The notes under the pieces were generated by a model, which was not told where the DNA came from, did no database searches, and saw nothing but the letters and a program-made list of their open reading frames with translations. A DNA stretch of 64,000 bases. Origin: a virus. Its lineage: Duplodnaviria; Caudoviricetes. This document shows, piece by piece, positions 21,060 through 61,083 of the stretch. Location of the stretch: IMG/VR virus record IMGVR_UViG_3300032007_000027, one strand, 5' to 3'. The translations under genes were made by a program, and so were the position numbers. How positions within the stretch are numbered: the stretch's first letter is position 1; every line of letters starts with the position of its first letter.

Positions 21060-21101
21060 CCGGAAATGTTAACATCATCAGATATATTTATATTTTTGAG
21101 T

Positions 21102-21640
21102 TCAAAGTATGCATAAACTATTGAGGTTTGGGGAAAGTTTATTAACAGTTTGAGGGGGTTTTGATTACTTTTTAACCGATTGTATGAGCCTAGAACACAG
21201 TTCTTGATGGTTACAGACCTTAAAACATGCTCAAAATGCATATAAACTATTTGGATTTGGTAAAAGTTTATTAACAGTTTGAGGGGTTTTGTTTACTTTT
21301 TAACCACTTGTAAACCTTTAGAACGAGGTTCTTTCATGGTACAGTATCCTAAAACATGCTCAAAGTGCTAATAAACTATTTGAGTTTATGGAAAGTTTAT
21401 TACATGTTTGGGGACTTTTGATTACTTTTTAATCAGTTGTAACCTTATAGAACGAGGTTCTTGACTGTTACAGACCCATAAAACCCCTCAAAATGCATAT
21501 AAACTATTCGAGAATTGCAAAAGTTTATTGCTAGTTTGAGGGGTTTTTTGAAGTTTTGTTGATTTTTTGGGGTAGTTTTGATGGTTCTTGAACTGGTTCA
21601 AAACCTATAAGATTGCTTTTGAAACACTCTGTAATGCATG
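21102..21640 (+). repeat. array A of the ~128-bp repeat (3 units, a partial unit and a terminal segment)
   Basis: Units start ~21102, 21231, 21360, 21488. Confidence 0.9.
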
Positions 21641-25634: not shown

Positions 25635-26400
25635 TCAAAATGATGATAAACTATTTGAGTTTTAGGAAAGTTTATTAGCACTTTGATGGGGGTTTCCAGT
25701 AGTTCTTTATAGACTTAGACTTTAAAACATGCTCAAAATGATAATAAACTATTTCGATTTTGGGAAAGTTTATTAACAGTTTGAAAGGGTTTGGTTACTT
25801 TTTAACCGTTTGTAAGGTACTAGAACACAGTTCTTGATGGTTACAGATCTTAAAACATGCTCAAAAATGCAAATAAACTATTGAGGTTTTGGAATAGTTT
25901 ATTAGCAGTTTGGGGGATTTGTTTACTTTTTAACCGTTTGTAAGGTACTAGAACACAGTTCTTGATGGTTACAGACCTTAAAACATGCTCAAACTGTGCA
26001 TAAACTATTGAGGTTTTGAAATAGTTTATTAACAGTTTGAGGGGTTTTGATTACTTTTTAACCGTTTGCAAGGTACTAGAACACGGTTCTTGATGGTTAC
26101 AGACCTTAAAACATGCTCAAACTGTGCATAAACTATTGAGGTTTTGGAATAGTTTATTAGCAGTTTGAAAGGTTTTGATTACTTTTTAACCGTTTGTAAG
26201 GTACTAGAACTAAGTTCTTGATGGTTACAGAATCCTAAAAGTGGCTCAAAATGCTAATAAACTATTTGAGAATCGCAAAAGTTTATTAACAGTTTGAGCA
26301 TATTTTTGAAGTTTTGTTGATTTTGAATGCTGTTTTGAGGTCTTGAACCGGTTCAAAACTGTCAGAGTAACGATTTTGGAATCATTCAAATGAGCATGAA
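25635..26400 (+). repeat. array B of the ~128-bp repeat
   Basis: Units start ~25733, 25861, 25989, 26117, 26246, then the terminal segment. Confidence 0.9.
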
Positions 26401-36991: not shown

Positions 36992-37455
36992 GGTTAAAAA
37001 AGACCCCAAACATGCAATAAACTTTTGCGATTCTTAAATAGTTTATTGATACTTTGAACCCTTTTTAGGACTCTGTAACAGTTCAGAACCTAGTTCTAAA
37101 GGTTTACAACTGATTAAAAAGTAATCAAAACCTTTCAAACATGCAATAAACTTTTGTGATTCTTAAATAGTTTATTGATACTTTGAGCATCTTTTAAGAC
37201 TCTGTAACAGTTCAGAACCTAGTTCTAAAGGTTTACAACTGATTAAAAAGTAATCAAAACCTTTCAAACATGCAATAAACCTTTGAGGATTCTAAATAGT
37301 TTATTGATACTTTGAACCCTTTTTAGGACTCTGTAACAGTTAAGAACCTAGTTCTAAGATGATTACAAGTGGTTAAAATCAGTCAAACACCCCCCAAACA
37401 TGCAATAAACTTTTACCAAATCCAAATAGTTTATCGCTATTTTGAGCATGTTTTG
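36992..37455 (-). repeat. array C of the ~128-bp repeat (inverted relative to A and B)
   Basis: 3 units plus a partial unit. Confidence 0.9.
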
Positions 37456-37600
37456 ATATGCAAAACATTCAAAAACTGCTTGCACATGCAAGAAAACCGT
37501 TGTACAATGCTCATGAATACCAATATTGTGTGCAACCCCGTCATTTGATTTATTTGATGGGGTTTTTCATTATATAAATACAATAAAAAGGCTTTTTGCT

Positions 37601-40908: not shown

Positions 40909-40925
40909 AAAAATTCCAAAAATAA

Positions 40926-40948
40926 GGAACTGTTTTTGAAACAGTTCC
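40926..40948. mobile_element. 23-bp collapsed TIR remnant forming a hairpin
   Basis: TAA|GGAACTGTTT-TTG-AAACAGTTCC|TAA. Confidence 0.6.
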
Positions 40949-40970
40949 TAAAACAATTTCAAAAAATATA

Positions 40971-42287
40971 CTACCAGATTTCAATTCCCGATGGAAGTAC
41001 TAAATGACCTTCATCGTTCAATACTGCAACCCCGTTAGGCACATTCTTTTCGGATTGAGCAACAAAGTCACTCGATGCATCATCTTTAGTTACAAATCCA
41101 ACATCATTCGTAAATTCTGAAAGATTGCTATAGGTTTTAATATCTGTAAGTTTAGCATAATATCTGCCGATGTCAAGTTTTACATTGCAACTGCTGTATA
41201 AATGCCAGTGACCTAAATCGTTACCGTCTAGATCCTCAAAATCTGTAAAATAAACAGGTAATTCAACGGTTAATGCACCGGTTCTAGGGTTGTTATTTGC
41301 AGTTTTAACATAGAAGTCTTTAGTTTCTATGATTGCAGGAGGATCGCTCTGCAAAGCCGGTCTTGAACTTTTCGGTATTTCAAAACTTATTCTTTCTGAA
41401 ATATCATCAAGATTTACATTTCCACCAGAACCGCCGGAACTTTGAGATATATTAACAACCGTGGTATCTGCAAACGGATTGTATTTGAACTGATTGTTTC
41501 CTATATTAAGTATTAAGTTATAGGTATTCAAATCAGATGAAACCCCGGTATTGAAAGATTGAACAGTTGTAAAGACTGGATCACCGTTCAAATCATCGTA
41601 ATCCTCGGACTTTTTAATAAAGATATCTGCATTTGTTGCTGAACTCGATTTAGGAATATCAATAGTTAAATCATCGGTATTATCAAATGTTCCGATTGGA
41701 TCACCATCATAGGTGAATGTAATTGCATAATGAGGCTCTTTCGGAATATCAATAGTTACATTATCGGTATTGTCAAATGTTCCGATTGGATCACCGTCAT
41801 AGGTGAAACTGATTGCATGTTGAACCTCTTTCGGAATATTGATAGTAGCGTTCTCGGTGGTTTTAAATTGCCCGATAACTTCATCATCATAGGTGATAAT
41901 TAAGGTCTTTTCATCAATGCTTTTCGGAATACTTATAGTGCTGTTACTTGCAGGATTGTAAGTACCAATAACATTGTTACCGCTTTTTAAGGTTAATATA
42001 CCGCTGGTATTAGGTATCTGCGGTATTGACTGCCGTGGAAGTTTAACCAGAACATCAGGACCGTCAATGCTGTATGTCCAGTGAGTTGACAGCATTGTGT
42101 TCTCTTCAACATCACCATATGTGATAATTAACTTTGCACGTTTGTTCAACTGTGAAAGTATTTCAAAGTTATGGTTTAAAACACCACCCCACTGGGAATC
42201 ACCATCTTTAACAACATAAACACCGTTGTTTATTTGCGATGTTGTTTTATATGTATTTTCAATATTTGCCATATTATCAAACCCCAT
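40971..42287 (-). CDS. tail-fibre-like virion protein with ~31-aa repeats
   Basis: Repeated TYDGDPIGTFDNTD..TIDIPK; late promoter. Confidence 0.65.
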   Translation of the reverse strand: MGFDNMANIENTYKTTSQINNGVYVVKDGDSQWGGVLNHNFEILSQLNKRAKLIITYGDVEENTMLSTHWTYSIDGPDVLVKLPRQSIPQIPNTSGILTLKSGNNVIGTYNPASNSTISIPKSIDEKTLIITYDDEVIGQFKTTENATINIPKEVQHAISFTYDGDPIGTFDNTDNVTIDIPKEPHYAITFTYDGDPIGTFDNTDDLTIDIPKSSSATNADIFIKKSEDYDDLNGDPVFTTVQSFNTGVSSDLNTYNLILNIGNNQFKYNPFADTTVVNISQSSGGSGGNVNLDDISERISFEIPKSSRPALQSDPPAIIETKDFYVKTANNNPRTGALTVELPVYFTDFEDLDGNDLGHWHLYSSCNVKLDIGRYYAKLTDIKTYSNLSEFTNDVGFVTKDDASSDFVAQSEKNVPNGVAVLNDEGHLVLPSGIEIW

Positions 42288-42341: not shown

Positions 42342-44051
42342 ATGATAGAAGATTTATTTGATAAACGATTCGGTTATGAATCAATAGATTTATACTTAAA
42401 TGATAAAATAGTACCATTTGAGTACATTCAGCATTTCATCTCGAAAATCGAGATGGACAGCAATCTTATGGTTTGCGGTATCAGATGTATACTGATTGCC
42501 GAAGATGGACTGTTTAAATATACCATTGCCAAAACAGTTCAGGAATTCGGTCCAGATGATACTATAAGAATTATTATTAAAGATAAAGATAATAATACTA
42601 TAGACCGAAGATTTAATTTTGTGAAAGCAACCGATATGGGGTTCGATCACGCACAGGGTAATCAATACATTATTGAGTACATAGACTGCTATACTTTTAT
42701 CACAGTTAATTCAGAATACACCAAATATATAACTGCACACGGATATAAGGGAACACCTTTAAACATCGTTAAAAGTGCCTTAACCGATGCATTTGTGCCT
42801 ATTGTTGAAATCAATAAAACACGCAAAGAAAAAAGTATAGAACTTGATTTAAAACGCTTTAAAAGCAATATGCCAGCAAGCAAGGAAACCACCGATAGAT
42901 TTTCCATGGATAAAACCATTGAAAAGAACATCAAAGAATTTGCTGATTTAAATAATATTATAATATTTCAGGATTTTCAAAAACTTCATATCTGGCAGCA
43001 TATTTCGGTAGACCAGTTAACACAGATTAACGATCAAGACGGTACTGAACTGTTTTCCGAAGAAAGCCATCAATTATATGCAAATCATATTTGTAATAAA
43101 GTTAAAATGCCAAGTGGTACTGATACCTTATCAAGAATAAATTTCAAAGCATATAAAAACATTGACGGTATTCACCATGAAATGCAGCAACTTGATTTTG
43201 ACAGCTTTCTACCAATGATCACTATGAATAATAATGCTGATGTCTATAGGAATCTAAGACAATCATTAGATACCTCATCATCATCAAAACGTGATACATT
43301 AGAGTTTCTTGTTAGAAGAAGTTTTGTTAAATATATATCTAATAATACTTTAATAATTTTTGTAAGACCGTTTTTCAAGAATATAAATGTAGGTACTAAA
43401 GTTTCTGTAAGAATCCATAATAATACCGAATTCCAAGGTGATCAGATGGAAGGTGATTTGGAATATAACGGTAACTGGCTAATTACTCAAAGTACTGTTT
43501 GTACTATCGGTCAGCATTTAATCTGCAGACTTGTTCTAAGACGTTTTGATAATCAGAAACGTACTGAAACATCTATGAATAAAACTAATAGTCAGTTTGA
43601 TAACAATACTGCATTCTCATTGAATAAACCTGTTAATGCACCATCAAATAAACTTAATGAAACTTCAAGAGCAAATCTTGACAGAGATTTGAAGAAAGAC
43701 GTTGAATCCCGTGTTTCTAAAACAGGGGTAAATGCAAACTCAAATAATACCCAACGTAAAACATGGACTGAAAAACCATCTGAAATGAAAACTGAACCGG
43801 CAATCTACCGTGTTAAAGAAAATACTAAAACTTTAGTATCTGAGTATGAGGAAAAACGTAAAACATATCTTGAGGCTAAAAAGGAAATACTTTTACAGGC
43901 TCAAAGAATTAAGAACGGTATTGATGCTGTTAAAAACATCAAAGACCTTGCAAAGAATATCCGCAGTGTCGATGATGTTTTAAACCTTGCTGATAATATC
44001 GATAACTTCACAAATGATGTTATTGATGGTTTTACAAAGAACGATAACTAG
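42342..44051 (+). CDS. baseplate hub (gp27-like) with C-terminal extension
   Basis: G.WLIT...H....L.L.R motif; ATG at 42342 after the late promoter. Confidence 0.55.
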   Translation: MIEDLFDKRFGYESIDLYLNDKIVPFEYIQHFISKIEMDSNLMVCGIRCILIAEDGLFKYTIAKTVQEFGPDDTIRIIIKDKDNNTIDRRFNFVKATDMGFDHAQGNQYIIEYIDCYTFITVNSEYTKYITAHGYKGTPLNIVKSALTDAFVPIVEINKTRKEKSIELDLKRFKSNMPASKETTDRFSMDKTIEKNIKEFADLNNIIIFQDFQKLHIWQHISVDQLTQINDQDGTELFSEESHQLYANHICNKVKMPSGTDTLSRINFKAYKNIDGIHHEMQQLDFDSFLPMITMNNNADVYRNLRQSLDTSSSSKRDTLEFLVRRSFVKYISNNTLIIFVRPFFKNINVGTKVSVRIHNNTEFQGDQMEGDLEYNGNWLITQSTVCTIGQHLICRLVLRRFDNQKRTETSMNKTNSQFDNNTAFSLNKPVNAPSNKLNETSRANLDRDLKKDVESRVSKTGVNANSNNTQRKTWTEKPSEMKTEPAIYRVKENTKTLVSEYEEKRKTYLEAKKEILLQAQRIKNGIDAVKNIKDLAKNIRSVDDVLNLADNIDNFTNDVIDGFTKNDN

Positions 44052-45502
44052 CGCATTGTAAATAAATAACTTCCGAAATTTAATGTATATAAATATATAT
44101 AAAAATATTTAAAATTTTTATTGCATTATTACATATAGTATAGTATCATAACAATTATGACAGATAAAAACAAAGAAGTACGTGTACGTAAATTACAAGT
44201 AAAAAGCGGAAGTCAAGCTGAACAAGAACTTGACCACAATATGTTTTTATCTAAAAATTTATCAAACACATGTATCTATATTCAACGAGGTACTTTTTTC
44301 ACAAAAAGAGATTGTCAAGACCCTAAATTAAAAAGCGAGATGAAGTCATTTTTAACTTTTGTTGAACTTATTAAAATGCTTCAGGATTCCAATCAAGTTG
44401 ATTATAGGGCTTTACCGGTTGCTGTTGCTCAACAAGTATGCATTCAAGTATGTGATGAATTTATATCATTCTTTAAAAAATTAAAGAATGGTGATAAAAC
44501 AGCTAGAATACCTAAATATAAAGATAAGGTAAAAGGTCGTAACAAACTTTCTTATACGAAAAATGCTATATCAACTAAGGAACTTAAAAACGGATATATA
44601 AAATTATCCGGTATAAATACCAAATTCAAAATTCCTGATGGTATTGACTATAAAGATATTCAACGTGTTGATGTTGTTAAAAAATCATCTCATATTGAAG
44701 TTATTATAATGTATAAAGTTCCAAAAGTTGAACTTAAAGAAAAGAATAACCGTTATATGGGGGCTGATTTAGGTTTAAACAACCTAATTACTGTAGCATC
44801 AAATGTCAAGGGGATAACCCCTATGATATTTGATGGTAGACCTGTTAAAGCAATAAATCAGTTTTATAATAAATATGTATCAGAACTGCAATCTAAATTA
44901 ACTAAAAAGGGGAAAGAAAAGTATACATCGAATAAAATTTACTCGATAACGAGAAACCGTTATAACAAAATTAATGATTATTTTCATAAAATATCTACGT
45001 ATTTAATCAATCAAGCAGTTTCCAATGGTATTACTGCCATATTCATTGGATTGAATAAAGAATGGAAACAAGAGATTAAACTCGGAAAGAAAAATAATCA
45101 AAAATTTGTTGAAATACCTTTTGGGATCTTAATTGATATGATAACTTATAAAGCTAAAGATAAAGGTATAGATGTTATAACAACTGAGGAATCATATACC
45201 TCAAAATGTTCATTCTTTGATAATGAGGAAATGTGTCATCATGATAAGTATCAAGGAAAACGAATTAAAAGAGGATTATTTAGGACTTCAGATAGAAAAA
45301 CCATTAACTGTGATGTTAATGGGGCTTTGAATATTATTAGAAAAGTAATTCCTACGTTTAGCTGTGAAACAGCAAAACTGGAAGTAGCGGATGTGGCTAA
45401 TCCTGTAAGAATTTCGTTTAGAAACGGAAATTTATTTCAAGCGTCTAAACGATTGAGCTTATAAATGTAAATAAATTTCGGAAGTTATTTATTTACAATG
45501 CC
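44052..45502 (+). mobile_element. TIR element carrying only tnpB
   Basis: 30-bp TIR GCATTGTAAATAAATAACTTCCGAAATTTA; CTAGCGCA direct repeat at 44048-55 and 45503-10. Confidence 0.85.
44157..45464 (+). CDS. tnpB: TnpB RNA-guided nuclease
   Basis: GADLGLNNL, EESYTSKCSFFD, RIKRGLF, INCDVNGALNI. Confidence 0.92.
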   Translation: MTDKNKEVRVRKLQVKSGSQAEQELDHNMFLSKNLSNTCIYIQRGTFFTKRDCQDPKLKSEMKSFLTFVELIKMLQDSNQVDYRALPVAVAQQVCIQVCDEFISFFKKLKNGDKTARIPKYKDKVKGRNKLSYTKNAISTKELKNGYIKLSGINTKFKIPDGIDYKDIQRVDVVKKSSHIEVIIMYKVPKVELKEKNNRYMGADLGLNNLITVASNVKGITPMIFDGRPVKAINQFYNKYVSELQSKLTKKGKEKYTSNKIYSITRNRYNKINDYFHKISTYLINQAVSNGITAIFIGLNKEWKQEIKLGKKNNQKFVEIPFGILIDMITYKAKDKGIDVITTEESYTSKCSFFDNEEMCHHDKYQGKRIKRGLFRTSDRKTINCDVNGALNIIRKVIPTFSCETAKLEVADVANPVRISFRNGNLFQASKRLSL

Positions 45503-45629
45503 CTAGCGCACTATCAAAGATTTTTAACTTTTGAACCTTGCGTATTATCAACTGTTCGGAAATTCCGAACAGTTGATAATGCTTTTTAATTCGTTCACGG
45601 TTTCTTCAAGCTGCTTGAGTTTATTATTT

Positions 45630-46268
45630 CACGTCTTGAAACGGTTCAAGAACCCCCAAACTACCCCCAAAATCAACAAAACCTCAGAAACATGCTCAAA
45701 CTAGCAATAAACTATTCCAAAACTCAAATAGTTTATTGCATCTTTGAGGGGTTTTTAGAAGTCTGTATGGATTCAGAGCCATGCTCTAGGTATCTTACAG
45801 TTGGTTAAAAAGTAATCAAAAGTGTTCAAACTGTTAATAAACTATTTCGATTCTCGAATAGTTTATTGCATCTTTGAGGGGTTTTTAGAAGTCTGTATGG
45901 ATTCAGAGCCATGCTCTAGGTATCTTACAGTTGGTTAAAAAGTAATCAAAAGTGTTCAAACTGTTAATAAACTATTTCGATTCTCGAATAGTTTATCGCT
46001 ACTTTGAGGGGTTTTTAGAAGTCTGTAACAGTTTAGAACCGTGTTCTATGTTCATACAGTTGGTTAAAAAGTAATCAAAAGTGTTCAAACTGTTAATAAA
46101 CTATTTCGGTTCTCGAATAGTTTATTGCATCTTTGAGGGGGTTTTTAGAAGTCTGTATGGATTCAGAACCTAGTTCTATGTTCATACAGTTGGTTAAAAA
46201 GTAATCAAAAGTGTTCAAACTGTTAATAAACTATTTCGATTCTCGAATAGTTTATTAACACTTTGAGC
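45630..46268 (-). repeat. array D of the ~128-bp repeat (inverted), with terminal segment
   Basis: 4 units plus a partial unit. Confidence 0.9.
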
Positions 46269-46383
46269 CACATTTGTATAAGTGTGATTTGATTTCACTC
46301 ACATTTTTCTTAGATTTGCATTGACAATAAGGGTTTTCTATATATAATAAGTATCATTGTTTTGTGTGATTGAGGAATATATT

Positions 46384-60905: not shown

Positions 60906-61083
60906 GGAACTGTCCCTAAATTAAAACAAATTTAGGGACTTTTATAATCCCCCACAAAACCCCACACTTTACGGGGTTGGGCAAGTTCACAAGACATCAT
61001 TTCACCTCCCACGTGGGGAGGCAGCGGATTCTAACCGCTTTATAGCAAACTCACCCAAAAACTTTTTATTTATTTACAATGCC
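60906..61083. mobile_element. composite remnant: TIR-1 left end, PATE-like element (60946-60990), TIR-2 end (61066-61083)
   Basis: Sequence matches to 13082, 5151 and 45485-45502. Confidence 0.75.

Follow-up and report, generated by a model that had tools for sequence, protein, structure and literature searches.

TnpB genes are usually carried by IS200/IS605 or IS607 elements. In a 64,000-nucleotide stretch of phage DNA (the window), a tnpB gene is instead tightly enclosed by perfect terminal inverted repeats, which raises the question of what kind of element this is and how it moves. A sequence-only reading had proposed that the TnpB was captured by a non-autonomous element of the DDE type, paralleling Fanzor capture in eukaryotes. 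This proposal holds up: the ends are those of the ISAzo13 family, and the element encodes no transposase. We consider it probable that the insertion is a non-autonomous ISAzo13-type element that carries tnpB and a predicted guide RNA and is moved in trans by a host transposase. According to Pfam matches, the genomic context is that of a T4-like phage (gp5, topoisomerase II, helicase). When GenBank phages were searched with the locus, tnpB alone was matched, at no more than 42% identity.

Layout of the insertion and its target site

A repeat search detected a 35-nt inverted repeat (44048-44082 and 45472-45506, 97% complementary). It includes the perfect 30-mer noted before, in which 44053-44082 on the plus strand equals 45472-45501 on the minus strand; 100 shuffles gave 0 matches. 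The tnpB ORF begins 74 nt after the left repeat and stops 7 nt before the right one. The terminal inverted repeats are about 31 bp long, and their outer 19 nt correspond to the ISAzo13-family terminus. The features of the locus, with the evidence for each in brackets, are as follows.

44048-44050, plus strand: left CTA, copy of the 3-bp target-site duplication (L020 empty site, L135 junctions)
44051-44082, plus strand: left terminal inverted repeat, ISAzo13-type (repeat search, shuffles, L135 comparison)
44083-44156, plus strand: non-coding region at the left end, conserved in both TnpB lineages, A and B (alignments)
44157-45464, plus strand: tnpB, 435 aa, RNA-guided nuclease family (Pfam, PHROG and structure-profile matches)
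45330-45502, plus strand: predicted guide-RNA (omegaRNA/reRNA) scaffold (fold z-score)
45466-45497, plus strand: terminal 11-bp hairpin of the predicted scaffold (right repeat plus inner inverted copy)
45472-45502, minus strand: right terminal inverted repeat, ISAzo13-type, outer tip GGCATTGT (repeat search, other copies)
45503-45505, plus strand: right CTA, copy of the 3-bp target-site duplication (L020, L135)
45506-45541, plus strand: flanking target DNA, putative guide source (L020 alignment; TnpB/Fanzor biology, PMC10711439)
45542-45582, plus strand: intrinsic terminator belonging to the upstream gene, with a 19-bp stem and a T run after it (also in the empty site)
61065-61083, minus strand: third copy of the 19-nt tip, 1 mismatch, right boundary of a TAA-flanked 178-bp mini-element (60906-61083)

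The insertion comprises 1455 bp (44051-45505, one duplication copy included) and targeted a CTA lying at a phage gene's stop codon. Upstream of the element lies a 605-aa ORF whose TAG stop (44049-44051) overlaps the left CTA, the G of this stop being supplied by the transposon tip. Region 44083-44156 probably holds the tnpB promoter and ribosome-binding site, judging from a TTGCAT ... TATAGT-like pair picked by eye; a promoter scan found nothing above chance within it.

As had been pointed out, CTAGCGCA is present on both flanks of the element, at 44048-44055 and 45503-45510, with the left copy overlapping the repeat. Its interpretation as an 8-bp duplication has to be revised. The phage contig L020, whose flank is 97.7% identical to the window, carries the empty site (...GATAA-CTA-GCGCAC) with one CTAGCGCA; the window flank differs from this empty allele at positions 8 and 11 after CTA. 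In L135 and L136 (TnpB 97% identical), the element occupies the same site as in the window. Their left junction reads ...CTA followed by GGCATTGT and their right junction ...ACAATGCC followed by CTA, giving symmetric tips and a clean 3-bp CTA duplication. Compared with the L135 tip GGCATTGT, the left tip of the window (G-C-GCATTGT) has one extra C at 44052. The 8-bp repeat exists because of this 1-nt insertion together with a chance similarity between target and tip. As read from the aligned junctions, the true target duplication is 3 bp (CTA) and not 8 bp. The proposed terminus GGCATTG agrees with seven other copies.

Other models of the junctions were considered as well. An 8-bp target duplication (IS6-, IS26- or ISL3-like) is ruled out, since L135 has a 3-bp duplication at the same site, and given L135 an origin of the 8-bp repeat by microhomology or retro-insertion is superfluous. 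An IS605-style 5′ target motif without duplication, an IS607-style 2-bp crossover and an integrase-style fixed core each fail to fit all junctions.

Insertions elsewhere are flanked by TAA on both sides in L009, L023 and Ga0256405_10005378 and by TAG on both sides in L134. The ERZ842401 copy is an exception with unequal flanks (TTG and TAC), and for the copy in the phage contig G003 a near-empty counterpart site was found in G001. TA precedes the phage copies at 6 of 7 sites, versus 5 of 139 in bacteria, a preference that the transposase model alone does not explain.

ISAzo13-type ends and candidate movers

To identify the ends, the 19-nt tip pattern was searched for and matched at least 120 bacterial and archaeal genome stretches. 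Among the matches listed, TAA or TTA adjoins 138 of 164 ends (84%), the 3-bp flanks are identical within 33 of 40 pairs of ends, and most pairs are MITEs of 154-157 bp. In L250, two repeats enclose a single 420-aa ORF that matches PF07592 (DDE_Tnp_ISAZ013) with an E-value of 4e-120. Among the tblastn matches listed, homologues of this transposase adjoin the repeat in 11 loci, near full length and at 42-45% identity, and fragments occur at 6 further repeat loci, including C-terminal pieces at contig ends in two Lachnospiraceae MAGs (L170, L252). The tip of the tnpB element matches the elements that enclose or abut PF07592 with 0-2 mismatches. The ISAzo13 family, with its PF07592 transposase, comprises the prokaryotic relatives of eukaryotic Zator. 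Both ends of the tnpB element carry the terminal repeat of this family. ISAzo13 elements generate 3-bp target duplications (PMC10045372), and the phage element has them too: CTA here, and TAA or TAG at four further sites, the one exception being the ERZ842401 copy.

By tblastn, no ISAzo13 transposase was found in the phage contigs G000-G003, and tnpB is the sole ORF of the element. Because a transposase ORF is lacking, we file the element as a non-autonomous ISAzo13 derivative and do not count it among the insertion sequences proper. Searches of the same four contigs also found no serine recombinase, rve or DDE_Tnp_1, and matches to Y1 TnpA were limited to two weak fragments below the family cut-off.

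The proposed search with the repeats yielded tnpB copies with other duplications (TAA, TAG), but no autonomous ISAzo13 copy sharing the inner repeat sequence was found. An exact 18-mer from the inner repeat, searched in 241 million metagenome records, recovered only tnpB elements and their deletion derivatives, and none of the at least 120 matches listed with the ISAzo13 terminus holds this tnpB. In four of five candidate host MAGs (Lachnospiraceae, Eubacterium, Butyrivibrio) no ISAzo13 transposase was found, and the fifth has only contig-end fragments of it; MAGs tend to lose repeats.

It might be asked whether the element is simply what remains of an IS200/IS605 (IS1341-group) or IS607 element after loss of tnpA, with similar subterminal hairpins mistaken for repeats. 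These families are the usual carriers of TnpB, a hairpin does occur in the right end, and identical near-terminal palindromes have precedents in IS605-type elements (PMC3119063). However, the phage element's repeat is no palindrome: its two ends carry the 10-nt loop and the tips in inverted rather than direct orientation, and the left end retains the outer 31 nt only, without the full hairpin. The 3-bp duplication has a verified empty site, whereas IS200/IS605 and IS607 elements have neither such duplications nor terminal inverted repeats (PMC6188088, PMC13565253). By its true repeats and 3-bp duplication, and with no above-cut-off Y1_Tnp match in the phage contigs, the element is set apart from the IS1341 group, in which hairpins lie subterminally on the same strand and insertion takes place 3′ of a fixed motif of 4-5 nt. 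No Resolvase-domain match was obtained, and the L135 and canonical junctions show fixed tips with a 3-bp duplication and no fixed 2-bp crossover, unlike IS607. With neither an above-cut-off Y1 TnpA nor a serine TnpA in the four phage contigs and with ends that match ISAzo13 elements, this derivation is very improbable and already largely refuted.

Alternatively, TnpB itself or some other phage enzyme could recognise the repeats in place of an ISAzo13 transposase, so that TnpB would mobilise a self-contained element. The failure to find a partner transposase whose inner repeats are identical would fit, and since related lineages bear other repeats, repeats and TnpB could co-vary. In L138 (TnpB 68% identical), other inverted repeats and the 4-bp repeat GAGG are present, and csAssE-Sib has a 69-nt repeat with GAT on both sides. 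On the other hand, the tip is common to TnpB-free elements and ISAzo13 transposase genes across phyla (at least 120 loci), and TnpB is dispensable for transposition in tested systems (PMC3627910). Moreover, the repeats do not follow the TnpB tree, as they are the same at 58% identity but different in L137 (87% identical) and in L138. We therefore give this possibility hardly any weight.

Mobilisation in trans by an ISAzo13 transposase also fits the separation of vehicle and cargo. TnpB lineages A and B are 58% identical (about 67% at the nucleotide level), while their 26-nt repeats are identical and the 44 nt of their right ends agree to 95-98%. Judging by this alignment, the terminal ends are constrained independently of the tnpB cargo. 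Close homologues without these repeats had been named as the finding that would speak against the capture; the homologues at 94-98% and at 58% identity have the same repeats as the window element.

The window holds further copies of the terminus. The third copy claimed before was located at 61065-61083; it terminates in ...ACAATGCC, then TAA. Mononucleotide shuffles of the window gave a mean of 0.31 matches of this kind (19 nt, 1 mismatch). A second pairing of repeats with a presumed tnpB, at 13082-15004, had been called unrelated. With the shared tip GGAACTGT and with TAA flanks, it is not unrelated as far as the vehicle is concerned; Pfam gave no match for the 471-aa ORF of this second element. 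A 438-aa ORF at 40971-42287 was considered as the second tnpB and rejected, having no Pfam, PHROG or PDB support; the second element is 13082-15004.

The nuclease and its predicted guide RNA

The ORF product matches the Pfam families OrfB_IS605 (PF01385, E 9e-19) and Cas12f1-like_TNB (PF07282, E 1e-10) as well as phrog_506 (E 2e-43), and its profile matches structure chains of ISDra2 TnpB and Cas12f (E 1e-10 to 1e-13). The concern that the RuvC-II position reads IG rather than Glu was correct as to the canonical position, which is I-G-L-N, but this is no evidence of inactivity. Residues D204, E344/E345 and D386 are invariant across 15 homologues, down to 46% identity, and the alternative Glu sits 6-7 residues ahead of the first Cys. 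From the alignment, the RuvC D-E-D triad appears complete and matches the known alternative-glutamate (Ealt) arrangement (PMC10711439). The zinc finger is degenerate (C351, C360), and the RuvC-I motif is G-A-D-L-G, lacking the Fanzor D-P-G signature.

The predicted guide-RNA scaffold overlaps the 3′ end of tnpB and extends into the right repeat. Its fold z-score is -3.4 in the window and -3.2 in a lineage-B copy. The last 44 nt of the right end are conserved across the TnpB lineages, and an A/G difference between copies in the terminal hairpin retains pairing as G-U; the case for the fold consists of energy z-scores plus this single G-U-compatible change and does not include covariation. An Rfam search of the scaffold region gave no family match. 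By analogy with known systems, the guide would start at 45503 or 45506 and be drawn from the flanking DNA. The terminator at 45542-45582, which predates the insertion as it exists at the L020 empty site too, is likely the 3′ limit of the read-through RNA.

Proposed homing and relation to known systems

For the spread of the element, we propose two routes. An ISAzo13 transposase of the bacterial host would move the tnpB element in trans; this host is probably a Lachnospiraceae-like Firmicute of the ruminant gut, and MITEs bearing these ends appear to abound in such genomes. The RNA partner of TnpB would end in the right repeat and take its guide from the flanking DNA, and the complex would cleave alleles that lack the insertion in co-infecting phages. 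Recombinational repair would then copy the element into the cut allele. Such homing resembles that of IS605 TnpB and of free-standing homing endonucleases of phages. The extra C in the left tip of the window may cripple further transposition of this copy while leaving homing unaffected.

A different possibility is that transposition is dead and the repeats are relics, the cassette now being kept and passed among related phages solely as a free-standing homing nuclease gene, or co-opted by the phage to compete with co-infecting phages. The window and L135 belong to related phages that are occupied at the same site, the left tip of the window has its 1-nt insertion, no transposase was found in the phage contigs searched, and the relatives at 49-54% identity are all solo tnpB genes in phage contexts, for which no convincing inverted repeats were found. 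However, TnpBs that are at least 94% identical occur at no fewer than three different sites, each with its own 3-bp duplication, which requires recent transposition. Likewise, the repeats have been kept perfectly while the cargo diverged to 58% identity, implying ongoing selection on both ends. For the lineage as a whole we regard the relic state as unlikely; for the window copy alone, it is consistent with mobilisation by an ISAzo13 transposase.

Compared with ISAzo13 insertion sequences and MITEs, the phage element has the same outer 19 nt in both repeats (starting with GG) and similar TA-centred 3-bp duplications, TAA/TTA in bacteria and TAA, TAG and CTA here (PMC10045372; PMC5718144), and transposase-less derivatives exist in this family as well. 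It differs in that its cargo is tnpB with a predicted guide-RNA scaffold and no transposase, and in that its genomic home is T4-like phages of the lytic type. With the IS200/IS605 (including the IS1341 group) and IS607 elements it shares the protein family and the expected logic of a guide read across the right end for homing, but those elements use a Y1 or serine TnpA and lack terminal inverted repeats and target duplications, the opposite of the phage element. Like the Seg and Mob free-standing homing endonucleases of T4-like phages, this is a small nuclease cassette between genes, here at a stop codon, at a site that is filled or empty among close relatives. Unlike these, it encodes a nuclease of an RNA-guided family within a bona fide transposon with repeats and duplication, and its homing is proposed.

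Fanzor1 and Fanzor2* reside in eukaryotic and viral transposons with terminal inverted repeats and target-site duplications (Bao & Jurka 2013, PMC3627910; Yoon et al. 2023, PMC10711439). There, too, a TnpB-family nuclease is the sole cargo of a non-autonomous cut-and-paste element and the RuvC glutamate is at the alternative position; as predicted here, the repeat and probably also the duplication lie within the guide-RNA scaffold. In contrast, the phage TnpB has a prokaryotic host and D-L-G in place of D-P-G, and neither introns nor an NLS are expected. It thus has neither the combination of D-P-G with Ealt nor the eukaryotic or eukaryotic-virus host of a Fanzor.

The general kind, DDE-linked and solo TnpBs with inverted ends, is known since 2023, so that the surprise is limited. 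The main text of Altae-Tran et al. (2023, PNAS; PMC10691335) describes branches of TnpB associated with DDE transposases, solo TnpBs that have the same ends on either side and are inferred to be mobilised in trans, and branches with a rearranged RuvC-II that are enriched in viruses. As in those DDE-associated cases, the TnpB lies within an inverted-repeat element with its 3′ end less than 250 bp from the transposon end. Six DDE branches are given there, with IS630 as the sole DDE family named in the main text; what the present case explicitly adds to that text is an empty site, a 3-bp duplication and a family assignment of the ends.

The present case bears on how TnpB-only elements move and on how the eukaryotic Fanzors came to travel on cut-and-paste transposons. 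It offers a verified empty site, a defined 3-bp duplication, a named DDE family and several cargo lineages on one vehicle in virulent-type phages, and trans-mobilisation and RNA-guided homing could be tested directly with few constructs. More tentatively, and at present somewhat doubtful, an ISAzo13-type vehicle may have repeatedly taken up different OMEGA nucleases in ruminant-gut T4-like phages (lineages A and B and the 13082-15004 element), with the terminal repeat doubling as the last guide-RNA hairpin. If true, vehicle and RNA-guided homing module would be interchangeable parts of a prokaryotic system that, given the relation of ISAzo13 to Zator, would possibly be a precedent on the bacterial side for Fanzor capture by eukaryotic terminal-inverted-repeat transposons. 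Our data suggest that phages spread compact RNA-guided nucleases among gut bacteria.

Junctions, empty site and duplication of the tnpB element

The sequence-only reading had described terminal inverted repeats around a single tnpB ORF, a flanking repeat and a third copy of the end, and all of these are present in the sequence.

Features of the tnpB element
44048-44082 and 45472-45506: inverted repeat, 30 nt perfect, with 0 occurrences in shuffles
44157-45464: single ORF (tnpB)
61065-61083: third copy of the outer 19 nt

CTAGCGCA is found both left and right of the element. In L020, a contig from another assembly with 97.7% identity across the upstream gene, the site is empty: the stop codon leads directly to the downstream terminator. 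Since this empty site holds a single CTAGCGCA, the insertion is exactly 1455 bp long. The same site is occupied in two more contigs, L135 and L136 (TnpB 97% identical), where the left junction reads CTA followed by GGCATTGT and the right junction reads the mirror-image tip followed by CTA. In these two contigs the tips are perfectly symmetric and the duplication is a clean 3 bp (CTA). Compared to L135, the window carries one additional C behind the first G of the left tip, and the target DNA past CTA reads G-C-G-C-A; the flanking repeat therefore grows from 4 to 8 bp. The direct repeat of 8 bp noticed earlier is thus real, but in view of the CTA duplication and the extra C the target duplication is not 8 bp long. 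The element went into the upstream ORF's TAG stop, and the transposon's first G restores that stop. The terminator downstream of the element (45542-45582, 19-bp stem) is older than the insertion.

The window shows, on the minus strand, the first 64 kb of an IMG/VR viral contig that is 104 kb long and about 59% complete. It has a GC content of about 31% and contains T4-like genes for the gp5 baseplate hub, the topoisomerase II large subunit and a helicase. In a similarity search of the locus, GenBank phages showed no resemblance to it apart from tnpB. An array of ~130-nt tandem repeats, whose units contain internal inverted repeats, lies immediately downstream of the element (45688-46290). Further such arrays occur at about 21100-21550, 25720-26310 and 36998-37456, and many similar ones were seen in three related phage contigs (G001-G003) and other contigs.

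Copies of the element and identity of its ends

Copies with an identical 26-nt repeat core were gathered by pattern scans and protein look-ups; they carry window-like (lineage A) or L023-like (lineage B) TnpBs.

Copies of the element, TnpB and left/right flanks
L009 and L010: TnpB 94% identical to the window; TAA/TAA
L134: TnpB 98% identical to the window; TAG/TAG
L023 (in G003): TnpB 58% identical to the window; TAA/TAA
Ga0256405_10005378: TnpB of lineage B; TAA/TAA
ERZ842401: TnpB of lineage B; TTG/TAC, the sole exception to matching flanks

A near-empty form of the G003 site was found in G001. Incomplete copies, left ends without the full element, exist too. The contig to which the window belongs stops inside a second left end (G000:C1:104342-104401); at the homologous site, L091:1629-3780, a left end and a lineage-B-like scaffold piece are present without tnpB. 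The L091 left end is followed by a DGR-like cassette with a 148-aa Avd-sized ORF, an A-rich template-repeat-like stretch and a 377-aa reverse transcriptase (RVT_1 match, E 3e-14). At L106:668-900, the right repeat and about 230 nt of lineage-B scaffold, again without tnpB, adjoin a 130-nt repeat array; this module is possibly a stand-alone guide RNA.

Lineages A and B share only about 67% nucleotide identity in the coding region, whereas they agree fully in the 26-nt repeats and almost fully in the left ~100 nt and right 44 nt. In L137 (TnpB 87%) and L138 (TnpB 68%), the repeats are degenerate or different. Like ends on diverged cargo, together with these unlike repeats, show that the ends do not follow the TnpB tree. 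By this comparison, the ends are under a constraint from something besides TnpB and its RNA. Two distant solo TnpBs are also bounded by repeats: csAssE-Sib phage (L133, OR575929.1; 2388-3756) has a 69-nt inverted repeat and a GAT flanking direct repeat, and L138 (2439-3834) a 30-nt inverted repeat and a GAGG flanking direct repeat. Their differing repeat sequences suggest other vehicles.

Related elements in the window
60906-61083: mini-element, 178 bp, TAA on both flanks
13082-15004: second repeat-bounded element, 29-nt repeats beginning GGAACTGT, TAA on both flanks

On its right, the mini-element bears the 19-nt terminus of the tnpB element as its tip; its left tip (GGAACTGT...) resembles the 13082-15004 element and forms a terminator-like hairpin. 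Folding is strong in the GC-rich core (z about -4.8) and better still on the reverse strand; the mini-element is kept at the same site in G003 with 95.6% identity. The second element contains one ORF of 471 aa (13318-14733, minus strand) without a match in Pfam; the element's end recurs at about 5247. Because an 8-nt tip and TAA flanks are common to this and the tnpB element, it probably uses the same kind of vehicle. At 40923-40951, in terminator position, a tiny palindrome (GGAACTGT-loop-ACAGTTCC) with TAA on both flanks looks like two transposon tips collapsed together.

The 19-nt tip, with two degenerate positions covering the left and right variants, was scanned in one genome per prokaryotic species and found at at least 120 loci. 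Many of the matches listed belong to Lachnospiraceae, Eubacterium and Butyrivibrio MAGs of ruminant or other gut origin; further ones come from Acidobacteria, Proteobacteria, Bacteroidota and one archaeon. Among these listed matches, TAA or TTA stands beside 138 of 164 ends, the 3-bp flank is identical in 33 of 40 paired ends, and most paired ends are MITEs of 154-157 bp. Such MITEs with TAA/TTA duplications are abundant in Eubacterium, Lachnospiraceae and Butyrivibrio MAGs (L146, L167, L178, L179, L195, L221, L223 and others). At locus L250, a repeat pair 1389 bp apart surrounds one ORF matching PF07592 (DDE_Tnp_ISAZ013; E 4e-120). Among the matches listed, tblastn with this ORF gave near-full-length homologues directly inside the repeat at 11 other loci and fragments at 6 further loci; C-terminal fragments lie at contig ends in two Lachnospiraceae MAGs (L170, L252). 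Eukaryotic Zator is a relative of prokaryotic ISAzo13, and both make 3-bp duplications (PMC5718144, PMC10045372). Given the shared terminus and the 3-bp duplication, the ends of the phage element belong to the ISAzo13 family and its duplication is ISAzo13-type, but the transposase is missing. In the four phage contigs, no Y1_Tnp above its cut-off, Resolvase, rve, DDE_Tnp_1 or ISAzo13 transposase was found, and this tnpB was absent from all bacterial loci with the 19-nt terminus among the matches listed.

TA precedes the duplication at 6 of 7 phage sites versus 5 of 139 bacterial ends; in the bacterial MITEs the preceding base is most often C. This TA could reflect a TAM need of TnpB, such as T-A-T-A-R, or AT-rich phage intergenic DNA. 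A weak Y1_Tnp fragment (17.6 bits, with a stop codon) was seen at G003:C1:15066-16315 and G001:C1:86738-87987, adjoining a 439-aa ORF with sub-threshold OrfB_IS605 similarity; this may be a decayed IS605-type element of the related phages.

TnpB and its predicted guide RNA

Pfam, PHROGs and a profile that matches the solved structures of ISDra2 TnpB and Cas12f all identify the ORF as TnpB. An IG at RuvC-II had raised doubts about activity. In one TnpB clade and all Fanzors, however, the RuvC glutamate is placed six residues ahead of the zinc-finger region, not about 50 residues upstream (PMC10711439). This known alternative position accounts for the IG: the glutamate is found within the motif T-T-E-E-S-Y-T-S-K-C, and 15 homologues down to 46% identity all keep D204, E344/E345 and D386. 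RuvC-I reads D-L-G, whereas Fanzor has D-P-G. Like the zinc fingers of some TnpB branches (PMC10691335), its CxxC zinc finger is degenerate. The protein is likely active. Relatives at 49-54% identity, all those examined, are solo genes in phage-like contexts, which fits the virus-enriched, RuvC-II-rearranged branches described in PMC10691335.

The final ~190 nt ahead of the right tip fold far better than shuffles (z -3.4 in lineage A, -3.2 in lineage B). The two folds share a terminal 11-bp hairpin, in which the right repeat pairs with an inner inverted copy; the single A/G difference between the copies leaves a G-U pair intact. The arrangement matches that of Fanzor1 and Fanzor2*, whose scaffolds include the repeat and the duplication (PMC10711439). 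An Rfam search of the element gave no match. The predicted guide RNA would run across the right repeat, and the guide would begin at 45503 or 45506. The empty L020 allele mismatches this would-be guide at positions 8 and 11.

Proposed mechanism and comparison with known systems

Observed parts of the mechanism that we propose are the junctions, the empty site and the family of ends. A host ISAzo13 transposase would mobilise the element in trans. TnpB and its guide RNA would cut unoccupied alleles, leading to retention and to spread among co-infecting phages. In the window copy, the additional C in the left tip may have abolished transposition competence.

According to reviews, neither terminal inverted repeats nor target duplications occur in IS200/IS605, IS607 and TnpB-only elements (PMC3627910, PMC6188088, PMC13565253). 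Altae-Tran et al. 2023 (PMC10691335) report six TnpB branches associated with DDE transposases, each with inverted terminal repeats and with IS630 as the sole DDE family named in the text, solo TnpBs with the same ends that are inferred to move in trans, and an enrichment of rearranged branches in viruses. To this, the present locus adds a different, named DDE family for TnpB-bearing ends, an explicit empty site with a 3-bp duplication, residence in T4-like phages, and one vehicle with several cargo lineages.
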